Assembly (NCBI RefSeq): GCF_054482525.1
Contig: NZ_CM137006.1
DNA: 64,000 nucleotides
Direction: 5' to 3' (one strand)
Part shown: piece after piece, positions 31,791 through 43,660 of the stretch
Layout of the letters: every line of letters starts with the position of its first letter
How positions within the stretch are numbered: the stretch's first letter is position 1
Position numbers and translations under genes: made by a program
Notes under the pieces: generated by a model
The model's input: only the letters and a program-made list of their open reading frames with translations
Database searches by the model: none
Told to the model about the DNA's origin: nothing

Positions 31791-32513
31791 TTAAACGATG
31801 CGGCAGGCGTCGGCTTCCCAGCGGTAACCGACGCCGTAAACGGCACGGATAAAGGACTGTTCGGCGTCGAGAGATTCCAGCTTGCGACGCAGGTTTTTAA
31901 TGTGGCTGTCGATAGTGCGGTCGGTTACTACGCGGTAGTCGTCATAAAGATGATTGAGCAATTGTTCGCGGGAGAACACTTTTCCTGGTTCATGAGAGAG
32001 CGTTTTCAGCAGACGAAATTCCGCAGGCGTCAGGTCAAGCATTTTTCCGCGCCAGGAAGCCTGAAAACGACCTTCGTCGATAATCAACGGGCTTTCAGCA
32101 TCCTGTTGCTGCAACTCACGCTGGGGTTTGCAACGGCGCAAAATGGTTTTGACGCGCGCTACCACTTCCCGTGGGCTGTACGGTTTGCAGATGTAGTCAT
32201 CAGCGCCAATTTCCAGCCCCAGCAGGCGGTCGATCTCTTCGATTTTTGCTGTCACCATCACGATCGGAATGTCAGAAAAACGACGAATTTCCCGGCACAG
32301 CGTCAAGCCATCGGTGCCAGGGAGCATCAGATCCAACAGGATCAGATCCGGTGGTGTCTGGCGCACATACGGCAGTACCTGATCGCCGTGGCTGATAAGC
32401 GTCGGCGCATAGCTCGCAGCACGCAGATAATCAATGAGTAACTGCCCCAGCTTCGGTTCATCTTCCACGATCAAAATACGCGGTGTGTTTTCGTCGATTG
32501 GTAACTCGGTCAT
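31791..32513 (-). CDS. baeR: Two-component response regulator BaeR (240 aa)
   Basis: Receiver domain ([10 protein letters not shown]...[13 protein letters not shown]) plus OmpR-type winged helix. Confidence 0.96.
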
Positions 32514-33913
32514 ACTTCTCTCTGTAAATCCCGTTCCAGCGGTAACTCTACTGTAATGCTTACCCCGCCAAAAGGCGAATGGGCAGCAATAATGCGGCCA
32601 TTATGTGCTTCAACAATGTTCAGGCAAATCGCCAGCCCCAGCCCGGAACCGCCGCTGGCGCGGTTCCGGGAACCTTCGGTGCGATAAAAACGTTCAAACA
32701 ATTTTTGTAGCTGATCGTCACTGACGCCCGGCGCGCTGTCAGCAAAGGTCAGGCGCACCGTTTTGTCGTGCTGCTCGGCAGAGATTTTCAGGCTGCCGCC
32801 GCTGTCAGTGTAGCGCAGGCTGTTTTCCAGTAAGTTATTGAATAACTGCATTAAACGGTCGCGATCGCCAAATACAGTAATACTGTCTGGCAGGGAAAAT
32901 TGCAGTTTCAGGCCACGGCTGGCGAATCGTTCGCGAAATGCGCCGCCCGCCACTTCCAGCAGTGGGATCAAATCTACCGGTGCTTTTTGATAGGCGAGAG
33001 CGCCTTCATCAGACATCGACAACTGATGCAGATCGTCAACCAGTTTGGTCAGTGTACCGACCTCCGCCTGTAAAGACGCCACCGTCTCCGGCGTGAATTT
33101 ACGCACGCCATCCTGAATGGCTTCCAGTTCACCGCGCAGCACCGCTAATGGCGTACGCAGTTCGTGAGAAATATCGGCCATAAAATCGCGGCGCATTTGC
33201 TGGTTTTTCTCCAGCGTGCTGGCGAGCTGGTTGAAGTCTTGCGCCAGTTTGCCCAGTTCATCTTCACTGGTGGGCGTCACGCGGGTAGTGAAATCGCCCG
33301 CCGCCAGTTTGTGCGTGCCGTCCACCAGCCGTTTTACCGGTGCCAGCAAACCACGCGCCAGCAGAAAGGTAGCGAGTGCCGCGAGTAACGTTGCCAGAGC
33401 GACAATCAGCCAGCTGGTTTGCCGCTGTTGTTTATCGAAATTGATATCAGTATTGCGGGTCAGTCGCTCAACAGGGGAGGCAATCACCGCACCCACTTCC
33501 GCACCGTTGACCAGAATGGGTCGCCGTGTACCGTCAGGTGGAATCGGCGCTCGCGGACCAACCAGCACTTTGTTGTTTTGATCAACCACCCAGAACTGGG
33601 TACGCCAGCCGTGCGGTGGCATACCCGGGCCGGGTTTATCTTCCGAATTATCGTGTTCAAATGAACGCAGGATCTGAAAGACAAAGCGATCATTGTTGCG
33701 CAGGAAGCGCCAGTTACCATGCTGCGCATACTGCTCGCCAAGCGCATCACTTAACAGTTGTAATCGCTGTTCATTACCATGCTTGATGTAATCAATAAAG
33801 CCACGCTCAAAACTGATACGCACCGCCCAGTGCATACTGATCAGCAAGACAATGCAGGTGGCGAAAATCGCCAGAAACAGTTTGCCGGTAATACCGGGTC
33901 GCCAGAACTTCAT
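32510..33913 (-). CDS. baeS: Sensor histidine kinase BaeS (467 aa)
   Basis: TM sensor, HAMP, His kinase (HELRTPL) and ATPase domains; overlaps baeR start. Confidence 0.96.
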
Positions 33914-35325
33914 TGCGCGCTCCTTTTTCGCCGCGAAATAGCTACATTTTGATGCGTATCGTTCGGCACTCTGGCAAAGATGAACGCCGGAAGGGCGATG
34001 ATAAACGCCATGCTAAGCCAGGTGTACATAAAGACGGTTTGTGTGGTGCCGCTGTCGACGCTGACATGCTGTGAACCAAAAAGTCCCAGCAACAGCCCGG
34101 CGATAGTGACGCCGATACTCATCGACAATTGCATAATCATCGACAGCAGGCTGTTTCCGCTGCTCGCCAGATTGTCCGGGAGATCTTTCAGCGTCAGGGT
34201 GTTCATGGAGGAGAAACGCGTCGAGTTGACCATCCCTTGTAAAAACAGGACGAACGGCAAAACGTAGTACCAGCCCAGCAGAGCAGTGGTCATAAACAAC
34301 AGGGTGACCAGCGACAGACCCAGCGTGGTCGCCACCAGTACCCGACGATAACCAAAGCGATTCACTACCTGTACCACAATTCGCTTCATCCCCATGCTGC
34401 CGAGCACCATCGGGATCATCATCAGTCCGGCATGAAACGGTGAGAAGCCAAGGCCAATTTGCAGGAAAACCGGCGTCATAAAGGGCAACATGCCGCTACC
34501 GATACGTCCGGCAAAGCTCCCCGCCAGGCCCAGCGAAAAGGTACGAGTGCGGAACAGTTTCAGACTGAACAGGGCGCGGTTGTTATTTCTGGCGTGCAGC
34601 AGATAAAGCACCAGTGCCACCACGCCAACTGCGACCAGGCCAGCAATCGCCAGCGGCGATAAACCTGTACCTTTACTGCCGTCCAGCGCCAGGGTTAATA
34701 CCGCCATGCCAACCGCCAGCAATAAAAAGCCGGAGAGATCAAAGCGCCGCGTCTGCATGGTGTAGTTCGGCATTAACATCAGTGTGGCGATCGCACCGAT
34801 AATCCCCACCGGAATGTTGATCAAAAAGATCCAGTGCCAGGAGGCGTACTCCACCAGCAGGCCGCCGAGCGCCGGACCGAGCAGCGGCCCGACCTGACCG
34901 GGTAACGTGACAAAGGTCATCGCCGCCATATATTGCTCGCGCGGTACGATTTTCATCACCGTAAGCCTTCCGACCGGCACCATCATCGCACCGCCAACGC
35001 CCTGTAACGCGCGTGCCAGCAACAGTTCGTTCAGCGTGCCGGAAAGCGCGCAAAACAGTGAACCGAGAGTAAACAGCACGATGGCGGTAAAGAAAATATT
35101 GCGCACGCCGACTTTGTCCGCCAGCCAGCCGCTGGCGGGCAGCATCACCGCCACGGTCAGTACATAAGAGACAATGACCATGTGCATATGCAACGGACTT
35201 TCCCCGAGACTTTGCGCCATTGAGGGAAGCGCGGTGTTAACGATGGTGGTGTCCAGCGACTGCATAAAGAAGCCGAAAGCCACAATCCACAATTGCCAGC
35301 GGGTGCTGTCGGGAAGATCTGTCAT
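33910..35325 (-). CDS. mdtD: MFS transporter MdtD (471 aa)
   Basis: Polytopic MFS membrane protein, last gene of mdtABCD. Confidence 0.95.
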
Positions 35326-38300
35326 TTACTCGGTTACCGTTTGTTTAGGTTTACGCGAAAAACGCAGCCGCAGACGGTCGAAAAAGAGATACACCACCGG
35401 CGTGGTATACAGCGTCAGAAGCTGGCTCATTACCAGACCGCCGACAATGGTGATCCCCAATGGTTGCCGCAGCTCCGAGCCGTCACCGCCCGACAATACC
35501 AGCGGCAGCGCACCAAACAGCGCCGCCAGGGTAGTCATCATAATCGGGCGAAAACGCAGCAGACAGGCCTGGAAAATAGCTTCCTGCGGCGTCAGGTTAC
35601 CGTGCCGTTGGGCTTCAAGCGCAAAATCGACCATCATGATGGCGTTTTTCTTTACGATGCCGATTAATAGCATGATCCCTATCAGGGCGATTAGGCTGAA
35701 CGGGGCATTGAACAGTTCCAGCGCCAGCAGCGCTCCAACGCCCGCCGAGGGCAGGGTGGAGAGAATCGTCAGCGGATGTACGTAACTCTCGTAAAGGATA
35801 CCCAGCACGATATACACCGTGGCGATGGCGGCGATAATCAGGATCACCTGCGAGTTCATCGTCTCCTGGAACACCTGCGCCGTGCCGGCAAAACTACCGC
35901 GCACCGTCGAAGGCACACCAAGCTGGGTCATTGCGCGATCGATCGCTGCACTGGCGTCCGAGAGCGATTTCCCGGTCGGCAGGTTGAACGAGATGGTCGA
36001 GGCTGCCGATAATCCCTGATGATTCACCGACAGCGGAGCATTCGCCGGTTGCCATTTAGCGAAATACGACAGCGGGATCGCTTTTCCTTCGTTATTGATA
36101 ACGAACATTTTTTCCAGCGCGCTGATGTCCTGGGTATAGCGCGGATCCACTTCCATCACCACTTTATACTGGTTCATCGGCTGGTAAATGGTCGAGATTT
36201 GCCGCTGACCGAAGGCGTTATTTAACAGACTGTTGGCGGCTTGCACGTCGATTCCCAGCCGTGCCATGGTGTCGCGGTCGTAAACCAGATTCATCTCCGC
36301 GCCGTTATCCTGCTGGTCGGAGTTCACGTCCGCCAGTTCCGGCAATGTCGCCAGTTTTTTGCGGATTTTCGGCTCCCATTCGCGCAGTGCCGCCAGGTCG
36401 TCGGATAACAACGTGTACTGGTAGCTGGCGTTCGACTGACGTCCGCCAACGCGAATATCCTGTACCGCCATCAGGAACAGATTCGCCCCCGGTTCTTTCG
36501 CCAGCTTCACGCGCAGACGGTCGATAATTTGCTGCGCCGTTTCGCTGCGTTCGCCGCGTGGCTTCAGCGTGATAAACATCATCCCGCTGTTCACCCGCGA
36601 ACCGCCGGTAAAGCCGGTAACATTATCCACCGCCGGATCGTCACGGATAATTTTCATAAAATCCTGCAACTTACCGCGCATTGCCTGAAACGAAATACTC
36701 TGATCCGCCTGTATCCCACCCATCAGGACGCCGGTATCCTGCTCCGGGAAGAAGGTTTTCGGGATCGAGATATATAGCCAGATATTCAGCGCAATGGTGC
36801 CAAGCAACACCACGCCCACCAGACGGGTATGATTAAGCACCCATTTCAGCGACTTACCATAGCCTTGTTGCAGGGCTACCAACATGCGACCAAAACCACG
36901 TAGTCGCTTTTGCTCGCGCGGCTTGCTGGCTTTTAGCATCCAGCCGCACATCATTGGCGTTAGCGTCAGAGAAACCAGCAACGAAATACCAATGGCGACA
37001 GAAAGCGTCACGGCAAACTCGCGTAACAGTCTGCCCGGCAATCCGCCCATCAACAGCAGCGGCAGAAACACCGCCACCAGTGACAGACTCATCGACAGCA
37101 CCGTAAAACCGACTTCGCGAGTACCTTGCAGTGCGGCCTGTAGTGGTTTTATCCCCGCTTCCAGGTGACGGGCAATGTTTTCCAGCACCACGATGGCGTC
37201 ATCCACCACGAAACCAGTAGCAATAGTGAGCGCCATTAACGACAGGTTATTGAGACTGAATCCGCACAGGTACATCGCCGCAAACGTACCAATCAGCGAA
37301 ACCGGCACCGCAACGGCGGGAATAATAGTGGCGCGACCCGAGCGCAGGAATAAAAACACCACCAGAATCACCAGCGCCACCGAGATAATCAGCGTTTGCT
37401 CGACTTCTTCCAGCGAGGCGCGAATGGTGGGGGAGCGATCCTGGGCAATTTGCAGATCAATCGCCGCCGGAATGGTTTCCTGCAACTCCGGTAATTTTGC
37501 CCGGATGCTGTCAACCGTCTGGATAATATTGGCTTCCGGCAGCTTGCGGATCATCAGCAAAATAGCCGGTTTGGCATTGGTCATCCCGGCGTTACGTACA
37601 TCCTGTACAGAGTCGGTCACCGTCGCCACATCGCCCAGACGAACCGCGCCGCCGTTGTTGTAATGAATAATCAGCGGCTGATATTCAGCGGCGGTTTTTA
37701 GCTCATCGTTGGTCTGGATCTGCCAGCGGTGAGTGCTATCTTCCAGCGCCCCCTGCGGTTTACGCACGTTGGCATTGCTGATGGCGCTGCGCACATCGTC
37801 CAGCGACACGCCCTGATTAAACAGCGCCTGCGGATTCAGCCCGACGCGTACGGCGGGCAGCGAGCTGCCGCCAACATCGACATCACCGACACCGTCGATT
37901 TGCGAAATCGTCGGAGCCAACTGCGTCGAGGCGAAATCGTACAGTTCACCCTGCGAATAAGTATCGGACGTCAGCGTCAGGATCATTATTGGCGCATCCG
38001 ACGGGTTCGCTTTGCGATAGGTCGGACGGCTTGGCATCCCGCTGGGCAGCAAACTTTGCGCGGCGTTGATCGCCGCTTGCACATCGCGCGCTGCGCCGTT
38101 GATATCGCGGTCAAAATCAAACTGCAAAATAATGCGCGTGCTGCCGAGCGAACTGCTGGAGGTCATTTCACTGACCCCGGCAATGCGCCCAAGCGAACGT
38201 TCCAGCGGCGTGGCAACGGAAGACGCCATTGTTTCTGGTGACGCACCGGGCAGCGAGGCGCTGACCATAATCACCGGAAAATCGACCTGCGGCAGCGGGG

Positions 38301-38403
38301 CGACCGGCAGCATACGGAAGCCCAGTATGCCGCACAGGGTAATGGCGACCGACAGTAAAATCGTCGCCACCGGGCGGTAAATGAAGAGGGCAAAAAACTT
38401 CAC
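35326..38403 (-). CDS. mdtC: RND multidrug efflux pump subunit MdtC (1025 aa)
   Basis: 1025-aa RND transporter paralogue directly downstream of mdtB. Confidence 0.96.
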
Positions 38404-41400
38404 TTACGCCTCCTCTTCATGACGGGCAAAGCGGCTTTTGGTCCACAATGCCAGGCGGTCGAATAGCAGATAAATCACCGGCGTGGTGAACAGCGTCAGC
38501 ACCTGGCTGACAATCAGACCGCCGACCATGCCGATACCTAACGGACGACGCAGTTCCGCGCCGACCCCGGTACTCAACATCAGCGGCAGCGCGCCAAGCA
38601 GAGCCGCCAGGGTGGTCATCAGGATCGGACGAAAACGCAACAGACAAGCCTGGTAGATTGCATCGCGCGGCGACATGCCTTGCTCGCGCTCAGCAGCCAG
38701 CGCGAAGTCGATCATCATGATGGCGTTCTTCTTCACGATACCGATCAGCAAAATAATGCCGATAATTGCAATCACATCCAGTTCGCTACCGGCAATCATT
38801 AACGCCAGCAGTGCGCCAACACCTGCCGTGGGTAGCGTCGAGAGAATGGTGATCGGGTGAATAAAGCTCTCGTACAGAATGCCGAGCACGATATACATCG
38901 CCACCACCGCCGCGACAATCAGCCAGACAGTGCTGCCCAGCGCCGACTGGAAAGCGAGGGTGCTGCCCTGGAACTGCGTGGTGATATCCACCGGCAGATT
39001 CAGCGTCTTTTCGGTGTCCATAATCGCCTGCACCGCATCGCCCAGCGAATAGTTATCCGGCACGTTAAAGGAGATAGTCGTTACCGGAAACTGATCCAGA
39101 TGGTTGATGGAGAGCGGCGCAAAACGCTGCTCAATTTTGGCAATTGAGCTTAGCGGCACCACGCCGCCGTCGCTGCTGGTCAGGCGAATGGTATCCAGCG
39201 CCGCGAGGCCTGGGGTATTTTCGGTGTTGTGTTCCAGCACCACGCGATACTGGTTAGCCTGAGTATAAATAGTGGAAATCAGCCGCTGACCAAACGCGTT
39301 GTACAGGGCGTTATCGACATCCGCCATGCTGATCCCCAGACGGCTGGCGCTGTCGCGATCAACATTGACATACGCCACCAGCCCTTGGTCCTGCCAGTCG
39401 CTGGAGACATCAGAAAGCTGTGGCAACTGCTGGAGTTTTTCCATCAACTGTGGCACCCAGGTACTGAGCGCATCCAGTGACGTGGCCTGCAAGGTAAACT
39501 GGTACTGGGTGCGGCTGACCTGAGTATCGATGGTCAGGTCCTGCGTTGGTTGCAGGAAGAGATCGACGCCCGGCACTTTATCCACCGCCGTTTGCAGACG
39601 GGCGATGACTTTTTGCACCCGGTCATCTCGTTCATCCAGTGGTTTGAGATTGATCTGTAAACGCGCACTGTTCAGCGACGGGTTAGTGCCATCAACGCCA
39701 ACAAATGAGGTCAAACTTTGCACTGCCGGATCCTGCAAAATCACGTCCGCGACCTGGCGTTGCCGCTGGGCCATATTGGCAAAGGAGCTGGATTGCGGTG
39801 CCTGCAAAGTGCCCTGAATAATGCCGTTGTCCTGCACCGGGAAGAAACCTTTCGGAATGAACACCCACAGCAGCACGCTAAGCAGCAGCGTGCTGAGTGC
39901 CACGCTTAAGGTCAGCCACGGATGATTCAGCACTTTCGCCAGTCCACGACCATAGGCGGCGATTATCCTGTCGAACATTTTCTCCGAGGCTCGGGAGAAG
40001 CGATTCTGTTTACGCAGCGACTCCTGGCTGAGCATCCGCGCGCACATCATCGGCGTCAGAGTCAGCGACACCACGGCTGAGATCAAAATCGCGACTGCCA
40101 GAGTAATAGCAAATTCGCGGAACAGTCGCCCGACGATATCGCCCATAAATAGCAGTGGGATCAACACTGCAATCAGTGAGAAGGTCAGCGAGATAATGGT
40201 AAAGCCGATTTCACCCGCGCCTTTGAGCGCCGCCGCCAACGGTTTTTCGCCTTTTTCGATATAGCGGGAAATGTTTTCGATCACCACGATGGCGTCATCG
40301 ACCACAAATCCGGTGGCGATAGTTAACGCCATCAGCGTCAGGTTATTGATTGAAAAATCGAGAAACACCATGACCGCGAAGGTGCCGATTAACGACAGCG
40401 GCACTGCGACGCCGGGAATGATGGTCGCCGGAATATTACGCAAAAACAGGTAGATAATCATGACTACCAGCGCGATAGCCATCATCAATTCAAACTGAGT
40501 ATCATCGACCGATGCGCGGATGTTGGTGGTGCGGTCAGAAAGCACCGTCACTTTTACCGATTTCGGCAAACTCTCGGTGAGTTGTGGCAGCATCTGCCGG
40601 ATGCTGTCGGCGGTGGAGATAATGTTAGCACCGGGCTGGCGCTGAACATTCATCACAATGGCCTGTTCTTTGTTCGCCCACGCGCCGAGCCAGCTGTTTT
40701 CTGCTCCTTGCTCTACGGTTGCGACATCGCCCAGACGAATCGGCGCGCCGTTCTGGTAGGCGATGATCAGCTGGCGATACTCTTCGGCGGATTGCATCTG
40801 GTCGTTCGCGGAAAGTGTGACCGCACGGGAAGGGCCGTCGAGGCTACCTTTTGCCGAGTTAACGTTAGCGCCGGTAATAGCGGTGCGCGCGGTTTCGCTG
40901 GTCAGGCCGAGGGCGGCAATCGCCTGGGCGTTAAGTTTGACGCGAACAGCCGGACGCTGGCCGCCGGAAAGCGTCACCAGGCCGACGCCGGAAATCTGCG
41001 AGATTTTTTGCGCGACGCGGGTTTCCACCATATCTTCCACCTGGGTCATCGGCATGGCGGTTGAGGTGACGGCGAGCGTCATGATCGGCGGATCTGCCGG
41101 GTTCACTTTGCTATAAACCGGCGGGTTAGGTAGATCGCTCGGCAACAAGTTGGTCGCAGCGTTAATCGCGGCCTGCACTTCCTGCTCGGCGACATCGAGC
41201 GGTAATGTTAGCTGGAACTGCAAAGTGATAACTGACGCACCGCCGGAACTTTGCGACGACATCTGTTTCAGGCCAGACATCTGCCCGAACTGGCGTTCGA
41301 GCGGCGCGGTAACGGCAGAGGTCATGACATCCGGGCTGGCACCTGGGTAGAGGGTGACCACCTGAATGGTTGGATAGTCCACTTCCGGCAGCGCCGAAAC

Positions 41401-41526
41401 GGGCAGGGCGCGATAACCGATAATCCCGGCGAGTAAGATCGCCACCATCAGCAGCGTGGTGGCGACAGGACGCATAATAAACAGGCGCGACGGGCCGCCT
41501 GTGCTGCTCGGGGGTAACACCTGCAT
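38404..41526 (-). CDS. mdtB: RND multidrug efflux pump subunit MdtB (1040 aa)
   Basis: 1040-aa RND transporter. Confidence 0.96.
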
Positions 41527-42773
41527 CAGGAGCGTGCTCCTTTTTTCGCGTATTCGCGGCTGGTGGCTTTCTCTTCCGAAGTGGTGGCGCTCTGGGCTTC
41601 CACCACTTCCACTTTCGCCCCTTCGGTCAGGCGATCAATGCCATCCGTCACTACGCGGTCGCCCGCAGAAATACCTGCGCGGATCACCACTTTCTGACTG
41701 TCCTGAATGCCCGGCGTCACCAGATGTTTGCTGACCTTGTTTTCGCTATTCAGCACCCAGACAAAATGGCCTTCGTTGCCCATTTGCAGAGCGGCGGTGG
41801 GGATCACCACGGCGTTTTGTTCGGTGTCGACTAACATACGCGCGTTAACAAACTGATTGGGAAACAGCGCATCATCCTGATTATTAAAGCGTGCTTTCAC
41901 TTTAATCGTACCGGTAGTGGCATCGATTTGGTTATCGAGACTTAACAGCGTGCCTTCACTTAATTTCTTCGAGTTGGTGCGATCCCAGGCTTCAACAACC
42001 AGCGGTTTTCCGGCTTTTTGCGCCTGTACTACGGTAGCGATATCGCTTTCCGGCAGGGTAAAGAGCAAATCGATAGGATGCGTCTGGGTGATCACCACAA
42101 TCCCGGTGGTATCACCACTGGAGATTTGGTTACCAACATCAACCTGCTTGAGGCCAACGCGACCATCGACTGGTGCGGTAATACGGCTCCAGTCGAGCTG
42201 CAGCTGCGCGCTGGCGACGCTTGCTTCATCAGCCTTAATGGTGCCTTCGGTTTCACTGACCAGCGCTTGTTGGGCATCCAGCTCCTGGCGGGAGACAAGA
42301 TTGGTTTTTGCCAGTTGTTGATAACGCGCCAGGTCACGGCGGGCGTTGGCAAGCGTGGCTTTATCTTTTGCCAGTTGGCCCTGGGCTTGTGCTAATGCAA
42401 CTTTGAACTGGCTTGGGTCAATTTCTGCCAGTAAATCGCCTGCTTTGACCTGCTGGCCTTCCTGGAAATGTAACGCCATCAGTTGACCGTCCACGCGGCT
42501 GCGCACCGTAACGGTATTAGCGGCGGTAATGGTGCCAAGCCCGGTGAGATAACGTGGCACAGCTTGTTCTACGGCAGTCGCCGCCTGAACCGGGGCTAAT
42601 GGGCCGGCACGCATACCACGGCGACCACCCGCTGGCGATTGCTGCGCTTGTTTCGTCGCCCCTGGGGCTGCACTCCGGGAGTCATTGCGGCCTTGCCAGA
42701 ACCAGAATGCGGCGATGGCGGCGATAACCACCACGATTACGATTACCCAACGGGATTTATAACTGCCTTTCAT
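41526..42773 (-). CDS. mdtA: Efflux membrane fusion protein MdtA (415 aa)
   Basis: Start at [16 protein letters not shown] (ATG 42773, revcomp); HlyD-type periplasmic adaptor. Confidence 0.94.
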
Positions 42774-42826
42774 CGTTAAGAGTTTCTCTTCCTGAAACGT
42801 TTCGCGGAATGATACTAGTGTAGCCA

Positions 42827-42844
42827 GCCAATAAGGGAGAAAAA
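42827..42844 (-). promoter_or_regulatory. Putative BaeR-binding box upstream of mdtA
   Basis: Reverse complement reads TTTTTCTCCCTTATTGGC, close to the BaeR box consensus as I recall it (TTTTTCTCCATDATTGGC); ~55 bp upstream of the mdtA start. Confidence 0.5.
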
Positions 42845-42999
42845 TGGAGGAATTATGAAACACTATCGGGAATCGTCTGAATGGCGGGCACATTTGCGAG
42901 CACGCATCCAGTAATAACACATGAAACTATTTTATCTACGCGTTAGCGATAGACTACGTGCATGGCGAAAGGAGGTAAGCCGATGATTTCAGCGGGACG

Positions 43000-43150
43000 C
43001 TGAAACGGGAAAGCCCCTCCCGAGGAAGGGGCCATAAATAAGGAAAGGGTCATGATGAAGCTACTCATCATCGTGGTGCTCTTAGTCATTAGCTACCCAG
43101 CATACTAAGACTACCAGGGCGGGGGAAACCCCGCTCTACCCTCACTCCTG
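43000..43150 (-). ncRNA. sibB: SibB antisense sRNA (type I antitoxin), approximate boundaries
   Basis: By established ibs/sib organisation the antisense RNA fully overlaps ibs; reverse-strand hairpin plus U-rich tract near 43009-43031 is consistent with its terminator. Confidence 0.5.
43052..43108 (+). CDS. ibsB: Type I toxin IbsB (18-aa hydrophobic peptide)
   Basis: ATGATGAAG... encodes MMKLLIIVVLLVISYPAY; preceded by AAGGAGG-containing leader. Confidence 0.85.
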   Translation: MMKLLIIVVLLVISYPAY

Positions 43151-43329
43151 AAAGTATGCCTTCACGATAAGATTGTCAATCTGCAGGCTTTGCAGTCTGC
43201 GATCCTGCCAGCAAATATTCTTTGCGAGACGTTACGCAATAATCACACTGGAAACTATTTTATCCGCAAGTCAGCGATAGACTGCATACAGGGCGAAAGG
43301 AGGTAAGCCGACGATTTCAGCGGGACGCT

Positions 43330-43480
43330 GAAACGGGAAACCCTCTCCCGGAGAAGAGGGCTTTTAATAAGGAAAGGGTTATGATGAAGCACGTCATCAT
43401 ACTGGTGATACTCTTAGTGATTAGCTTCCAGGCTTACTAAGAACACCAGGGGGAGGGGGAAACCTCTCCCTAACCCTCAC
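43330..43480 (-). ncRNA. sibA: SibA antisense sRNA (type I antitoxin), approximate boundaries
   Basis: Antisense to ibsA by analogy; hairpin at ~43338-43360. Confidence 0.5.
43381..43440 (+). CDS. ibsA: Type I toxin IbsA (19-aa hydrophobic peptide)
   Basis: Encodes MMKHVIILVILLVISFQAY. Confidence 0.85.
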   Translation: MMKHVIILVILLVISFQAY

Positions 43481-43660
43481 TCCTGAAATTATGTCACTCC
43501 GCCCTTAGTGTCAATCGACGGCTCTCCGTTCTTGCGAGGCGAATAGCAAAATTTTCTGCGCCGCCGGGCCTAATTCTGAAAGTTTCTTCGTTTGCTCTTA
43601 TTTCATTGTTGCAGTCGGTATGATACCGGACCTCGATAATTCTCTAAGAAAGGATTTCTT

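Follow-up and report, generated by a model that had tools for sequence, protein, structure and literature searches.

Response regulators of the OmpR/PhoB family bind head to tail on tandem direct repeats, and PhoB, whose pho box half-site is CTGTCAT, activates promoters devoid of a -35 element from a pho box that ends about 10 bp upstream of the -10 element. For BaeR, the 18-bp consensus TTTTTCTCCATDATTGGC is credited to Nishino et al. 2005 in passages of PMC3799227 and PMC3915751, the first of which also notes a CTNCA core for BaeR sites. Choudhary et al. mapped BaeR by ChIP-exo in Escherichia coli K-12 MG1655 and reported two peaks upstream of mdtA (PMC7657598, Data Set S2). The BaeR box was published in 2005 and the ChIP-exo data followed in 2020, and another E. 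coli genome adds nothing new to them. We analysed the mdtA promoter in a stretch of 64,000 nucleotides of E. coli chromosome, referred to as the window in the rest of the text. The 18-mer TTTTTCTCCCTTATTGGC, which occupies 42844..42827 of the minus strand and precedes the mdtA ATG (42773) by 53 nt, is the already published mdtA BaeR box of E. coli, and nothing is new in the site itself. The sole refinement that we propose is a longer array of three phased half-sites, whose register we infer from the sequence and of which the 18-mer would be the promoter-proximal portion.

The window is 100% identical to the chromosome of E. coli strain 19KM1776 (NZ_CP151009.1; record coordinates equal window coordinates plus 18). 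RefSeq places mdtA, the first gene of the operon, at 41526..42773 on the minus strand, and Pfam finds HlyD-type membrane-fusion domains in its product. It is followed on the same strand by mdtB (38404-41526), mdtC (35326-38403) and mdtD (33910-35325), as annotated in RefSeq, then by baeS (32510-33913), whose product contains HAMP, HisKA and HATPase_c domains, and baeR (31791-32513). The six genes run without gaps, neighbours either abutting or overlapping by 1-4 nt. In Pfam, the baeR product combines a receiver domain (Response_reg, PF00072) with a winged-helix Trans_reg_C domain (PF00486), as in regulators of the OmpR/PhoB type. It also aligns along its entire length with the solved BaeR structure (PDB 4B09), and its relatives include PhoB, KdpE and BasR/PmrA. 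An open reading frame of 464 aa (41526-42920, minus strand) shares the frame of mdtA, begins further upstream with a GTG at 42920 and runs through the whole promoter. We rejected this start as an artefact because RefSeq begins the protein at the ATG at 42773 (415 aa) and because the alignment of upstream sequences displays 1- and 2-nt indels and a non-coding pattern of conservation.

Two Sib antitoxin RNAs are encoded upstream on the mdtA strand, at 43179..43037 and 43514..43366 (Rfam RF00113; 141.7 and 149.5 bits, respectively). Opposite each of them, on the plus strand, lies an Ibs type I toxin open reading frame (43052-43108 and 43381-43440), the proximal one being MMKLLIIVVLLVISYPAY. These loci are the known sibA/ibsA-sibB/ibsB pair located between yegL and mdtA. 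The 601-bp Sib/Ibs region is far more variable than the mdtA promoter: 66 E. coli records are at least 99% identical over it, compared to 5265 for a 71-bp core of the promoter (see below).

The sequence-only reading had recognized the reverse strand at 42827-42844 as a near-consensus BaeR site upstream of mdtA. The letters that it gave, TTTTTCTCCCTTATTGGC, are exact, the consensus that it relied on is the one printed in PMC3799227 and PMC3915751, and the RefSeq start codon of mdtA confirms the placement of the box. TTTTTCTCCCTTATTGGC agrees with TTTTTCTCCATDATTGGC at 17 of 18 positions, with a single mismatch, and the 64-kb window contains no other match, whether one or up to three mismatches are allowed. 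With at most one mismatch, none of 100 dinucleotide-preserving shuffles contained a match; analytically, 2.2e-4 matches are expected per window over both strands together. With at most three mismatches, shuffles contained 0.30 matches on average and 27 of the 100 had at least one. Since the three-mismatch pattern is not rare in shuffled DNA, the weight rests on the 17/18 match.

The term near-consensus is correct as a count and partly circular as evidence. In K-12 MG1655, the BaeR sites of spy and acrD read TTTTTCTCCATAATTGGC and TTTTTCTCCACGATTGGC, respectively, and the column-wise majority of the mdtA, spy and acrD sites, TTTTTCTCCAT[AGT]ATTGGC, is exactly the published consensus. TTTTTCTCCCTTATTGGC thus appears to be a founding member of this consensus and not an independent match to it. 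In all three promoters, the box lies on the coding strand of its gene.

Downstream of the box, a 16-nt block, CTAaACTAGTATCATT, is conserved at 0.93-0.96 and contains a putative -10 element, TATCAT (42809..42814, minus strand). Two overlapping -10 candidates, TAGTAT and TATCAT, can be read in this invariant block. In E. albertii and in a cryptic Escherichia clade the block becomes TAGTAACAT, in which TAGTAT loses its last T and the second candidate, now TAACAT, retains the T at -12, the A at -11 and the T at -7. We favour TATCAT because this variant keeps these three positions of TA(T/A)CAT. With TATCAT as the candidate -10, transcription is predicted to start near A42802, leaving a 5′ untranslated region of about 29 nt, and the hexamer at the nominal -35 position would be CCCTTA. 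Numbered from this predicted start, the 18-mer extends from -42 to -25.

No mdtA-proximal start is present in the start-site set of uninduced cells (Kim 2012), in which the sole start assigned to mdtA falls within the sib region, 646 bp upstream. Likewise, the Cappable-seq supplement, read under both coordinate systems, has no entry close to the mdtA promoter, and the list of constitutive RpoD promoters does not include mdtA. An activator-dependent promoter is consistent both with the lack of an uninduced proximal start and with the absence of mdtA from the constitutive list. The uninduced set also contains an ibsB start (U00096.2 2151851), which corresponds to about position 42962 on the plus strand of the window and would put an ibs promoter, divergent from that of mdtA, at the upper limit of the interval covered by the sequence-only reading.

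The predicted leader contains a Shine-Dalgarno-like sequence, AGGAAGAG (42786..42793, minus strand), embedded in the conserved block TTTCAGGAaGAGA (42785-42797). From the end of this block's purine run to the ATG there are 12 nt, a long spacing for a Shine-Dalgarno sequence, and the block may have a role beyond ribosome binding.

We searched the region upstream of mdtA for half-sites resembling the core of the spy box, CTCCATAAT, with up to two mismatches, a definition chosen after viewing these same sites. The coding strand contains exactly three matches, starting at 42860, 42849 and 42839, that is, spaced by 11 and 10 bp. Half-site 1, TTTCATAAT (42852..42860, minus strand), carries two mismatches to CTCCATAAT and would lie at about -58 to -50 from the predicted start. 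Half-site 2, CTCCATTTT (42841..42849, minus strand; about -47 to -39), is the most conserved element of the promoter. Half-site 3, CTCCCTTAT (42831..42839, minus strand; about -37 to -29), is followed by TGGC (42830-42827) and overlaps the nominal -35 hexamer. Together, the three half-sites would span -58 to -29, and the 18-mer comprises the end of half-site 2, the whole of half-site 3 and TGGC. Such a triplet is unique in the 64-kb window on both strands and did not arise in any of 100 first-order Markov simulations. This is no independent test, since the half-site consensus was chosen post hoc from the same sites. TRF and a seed-based repeat finder reported no repeat in 42770-42930; generic repeat finders are blind here because the half-sites are too degenerate.

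K-12 MG1655 is identical to the window from 42862 down to the mdtA ATG and differs only further upstream, for example by CAGAC where the window has CCGAT at 42869-42865. The promoter is in fact essentially invariant across E. coli, the 71-bp core at 42790-42860 being 100% identical in 5265 of 5417 records. The box itself is identical to K-12 positions 2153945-2153962. Gene coordinates in PMC7657598 agree with NC_000913.3, and the ChIP-exo peaks were converted as window = 2196789 − K-12 coordinate; all ChIP-exo and RNA data considered here come from K-12, another strain than that of the window. Peak_5 (K-12 2153931-2153967, S/N 10.96) corresponds to TCATAATTCCTCCATTTTTCTCCCTTATTGGCTGGCT at 42822..42858 on the minus strand, or -56 to -20 from the predicted start. 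It encloses the 18-mer and reaches 14 bp further upstream, beginning within half-site 1, so the published mapping of BaeR falls on the site picked out from sequence and not elsewhere. Peak_6 (K-12 2153972-2153998, S/N 14.99) corresponds to TAGTATCATTCCGCGAAACGTTTCAGG at 42791..42817 on the minus strand (-15 to +12) and covers the -10/start region of the promoter. Its signal probably reflects RNA polymerase held by BaeR, at about the position where an open complex would be expected.

These data leave very little room for the idea that TTTTTCTCCCTTATTGGC matches by chance, or that the region works as RNA within the 5′ leader instead of as a DNA operator. Short motifs do recur, as the shuffles scored with three mismatches illustrate. 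However, the expectation of 2.2e-4, the lack of any one-mismatch match in the 100 shuffles and the ChIP-exo occupancy rule out chance resemblance as the origin of the match. As for an RNA element, the predicted fold of 42862-42765 was no better than that of its shuffles (z = +0.93), and Rfam returned only the two Sib RNAs; this candidate was rejected. We regard both possibilities as exceedingly improbable.

The consequence of BaeR binding is apparent from expression data. Upon induction with 5% ethanol, deletion of baeR reduced expression of mdtA (log2 change of -4.0), mdtB (-3.8), mdtC (-3.6), mdtD/iceT (-3.4) and baeS (-4.6), which represents a 10- to 25-fold drop, and left uninduced expression unchanged (PMC7657598). 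Together with the contiguity of the six genes, these results support autoregulation of mdtABCD-baeSR by BaeR, as the sequence-only reading had proposed. Nevertheless, the 18-mer alone does not predict occupancy, because the Nishino box of spy (K-12 1825764-1825781) lies between two BaeR ChIP-exo peaks and inside neither, and because acrD has no BaeR peak in the same study (PMC7657598). The second of the spy peaks, peak_2 (K-12 1825823-1825843), covers CATAATCTCTGCAAAATCATC, which contains the box of Yamamoto 2008, TCTNCANAA (PMC7657598).

To examine conservation, we took 80 mdtA loci from different species of Enterobacteriaceae and aligned the 130 nt that precede each start codon, yielding 79 unique sequences, and scored identity to the window in the 57 sequences that belong to genera other than Escherichia and Citrobacter. 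Conservation was strongly blocked, with half-sites 1 and 2 and the -10 block almost unchanged throughout the 79 sequences. Among these 57 sequences, identity reached 0.98 for half-site 2 (42849-42841), 0.94 for the -10 block CTACACTAGTATCATT (42823-42808), 0.92 for the leader block TTTCAGGAAGAGA (42797-42785), 0.85 for an upstream TTCAGAC (42881-42875) and 0.83 for half-site 1 (42860-42852). In contrast, half-site 3 (42839-42831) scored 0.33 and the last 12 nt of the 18-mer (42838-42827) scored 0.36, no more than the 0.38 of the unconstrained DNA far upstream (42903-42885). Within the 18-mer, conservation across the family is confined to the 5′ TTTTTC (0.93). Its 3′ two-thirds are conserved only in Escherichia and Citrobacter, in which half-site 3 scores 1.00 and 0.83, respectively, and its GGC end varies even inside Escherichia, where GAC or AGC is also found.

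This pattern raises the possibility that the ancestral and essential operator consists of half-sites 1 and 2 (42860-42841), with CTCCCTTATTGGC as a third half-site or spacer specific to Escherichia and Citrobacter; the textbook 18-mer would then be an E. coli-specific description of the site. Such a reading refines the BaeR operator and is no true rival to it, and we give it nearly even odds. Several observations besides the identity scores and the variable GGC end point in this direction. When distant genera are compared with the published consensus, the position that fits it best moves 10 bp further upstream, onto ATTTCCTCCATTTTTCCG. Peak_5, as noted above, begins in half-site 1. Moreover, a weight matrix built only from the upstream block of the mdtA orthologues (42861-42840) has as its top match at spy the core of the box, TTCTCCATAAT (12.7 bits, 0.008 expected), and as its top match at acrD again the core of the box (0.3 bits, 0.03 expected). 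Since the matrix picks these spy and acrD cores, they correspond better to the upstream half-site of mdtA. On the other hand, TTTTTCTCC...ATTGGC is exact in three unrelated K-12 promoters, for which chance is no explanation, and TGGC is retained in the acrD box of Erwinia. The conservation of the upstream block could also stem from another factor or from an overlapping promoter element.

The related and more specific proposal, that the family-wide BaeR operator is the 20-bp pair TTTCATAwTTCCTCCATTTTT (42860-42840) and not the textbook 18-mer, comes from the alignment; we advance it tentatively and would not bet on it. If true, regulon predictions based on TTTTTCTCCATDATTGGC in other genera employ a lineage-specific motif drawn from three E. 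coli sites.

One overlapping promoter element deserves consideration in this context. TTCAGA (42881-42876) and CATAAT (42857-42852) could form a second sigma-70 promoter with a start near 42845, in which case half-site 1 would owe its conservation to its role as a -10 element. A consensus scan indeed returned TTCAGA-18-CATAAT with 9 of 12 matches, and both hexamers are conserved across genera. Yet the scan found one site where 0.8 are expected in shuffles, the 18-bp spacing is suboptimal and the -35 match is weak, and the uninduced start-site set has no start near 42845. Furthermore, ChIP-exo peak_2 of spy also has a CATAAT at its 5′ edge, which favours contact by BaeR. We consider a second promoter unlikely and retain half-site 1 as part of the BaeR array.

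TTCAGAC itself opens a conserved upstream element, TTCAGACGATTCCCGA (42866..42881, minus strand), and scores 0.85-1.00 across the 79 sequences. In K-12, Citrobacter and Enterobacter the element is a direct repeat, CAGAC-N5-CAGAC, the second copy of which is replaced here by CCGAT; some genera have palindromes instead, such as CGGATGAATCCG. CpxR sites on the mdtA promoter have been reported in the literature. The element TTCAGACGATTCCCGA does not match the CpxR box, and the CpxR box GTAAA-N5-GTAAA has no match with two or fewer mismatches in 42774-43040, nor in the 280 bp upstream of mdtA. At three mismatches it has only four matches, none of which falls on a conserved block.

Taken together, these results make it highly likely (with a probability of roughly 0.9) that the region of TTTTTCTCCCTTATTGGC is the known BaeR operator of mdtABCD-baeSR, functioning as a phased array through PhoB-like recruitment and positive autoregulation. 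BaeS phosphorylates BaeR, a winged-helix response regulator of the OmpR/PhoB type encoded at the end of its own operon. BaeR would then bind same-strand half-sites of the form CTCCATAAT, phased by 10-11 bp between about -58 and -25. A gap of about 12 bp would separate the array from the conserved -10 candidate TATCAT (42814-42809) downstream, and the array would stand where a -35 element, apparently missing from this promoter, is normally found. BaeR would thus most likely recruit RNA polymerase in the manner of PhoB at pho boxes. Since the transcript closes with baeS and baeR, activation is subject to positive autoregulation.

Through its control of an efflux pump for multiple drugs and metals and of the pump's envelope-stress regulator, the site is relevant to antibiotic tolerance. 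The point worth recording is that the upstream two-thirds of the array, and not the 3′ end of the 18-mer, are conserved across Enterobacteriaceae. As the 18-mer comes from three E. coli sites and only its 5′ end and the adjacent upstream DNA are conserved family-wide, caution is warranted when it is used to define BaeR regulons in other genera.

How the array compares with described operators can be summarized as follows. The response regulator DzrR of Dickeya oryzae is reported to recognize two direct CTCCAT repeats upstream of desAB, an RND efflux operon, and baeR is reportedly dispensable there (PMC10052836). The CTCCAT core is the same as in half-site 2 of mdtA and in the spy and acrD boxes; the regulator and the organism differ, and we mention the likeness in passing. 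A literature search for the exact promoter sequence returned a single paper, which quotes TCTNCANAA, the box that Yamamoto 2008 derived from the spy footprint. Exact TCTNCANAA is absent from the mdtA promoter, but its CTNCA core is present in half-site 2 (CTCCA) and, with one mismatch, in half-sites 1 (TTTCA) and 3 (CTCCC). The spy promoter has an exact match, TCTGCAAAA, which precedes the Nishino box by about 60 bp and falls within ChIP-exo peak_2; this peak holds a CTTCATAAT-CTCTGCAAAAT pair that contains TCTNCANAA.

The spy and acrD boxes share TTTTTCTCC...ATTGGC with mdtA, on the coding strand upstream of the gene, and resemble it further in having CTCC-type half-sites 10, 11 or 22 bp upstream. 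They differ from it in the central triplet (CTT in mdtA, ATA in spy and ACG in acrD) and in the distance to the start codon (53 nt in mdtA, about 140 in spy and about 70 in acrD). The pho box of PhoB class II promoters is bound by a regulator of the same family. Like it, the mdtA array has same-strand repeats phased by about 10-11 bp, would end about 10-12 bp upstream of the putative -10 element and is associated with no recognizable -35. The half-site sequence of the pho box is unlike the CTCCATAAT-like one of mdtA, and contact with sigma-70 is something that we infer for BaeR by analogy. With the mdtA BaeR box of K-12 described by Nishino, Honda and Yamaguchi in 2005, the agreement is complete: the same 18-mer stands at the same 53-nt distance upstream of the same operon.
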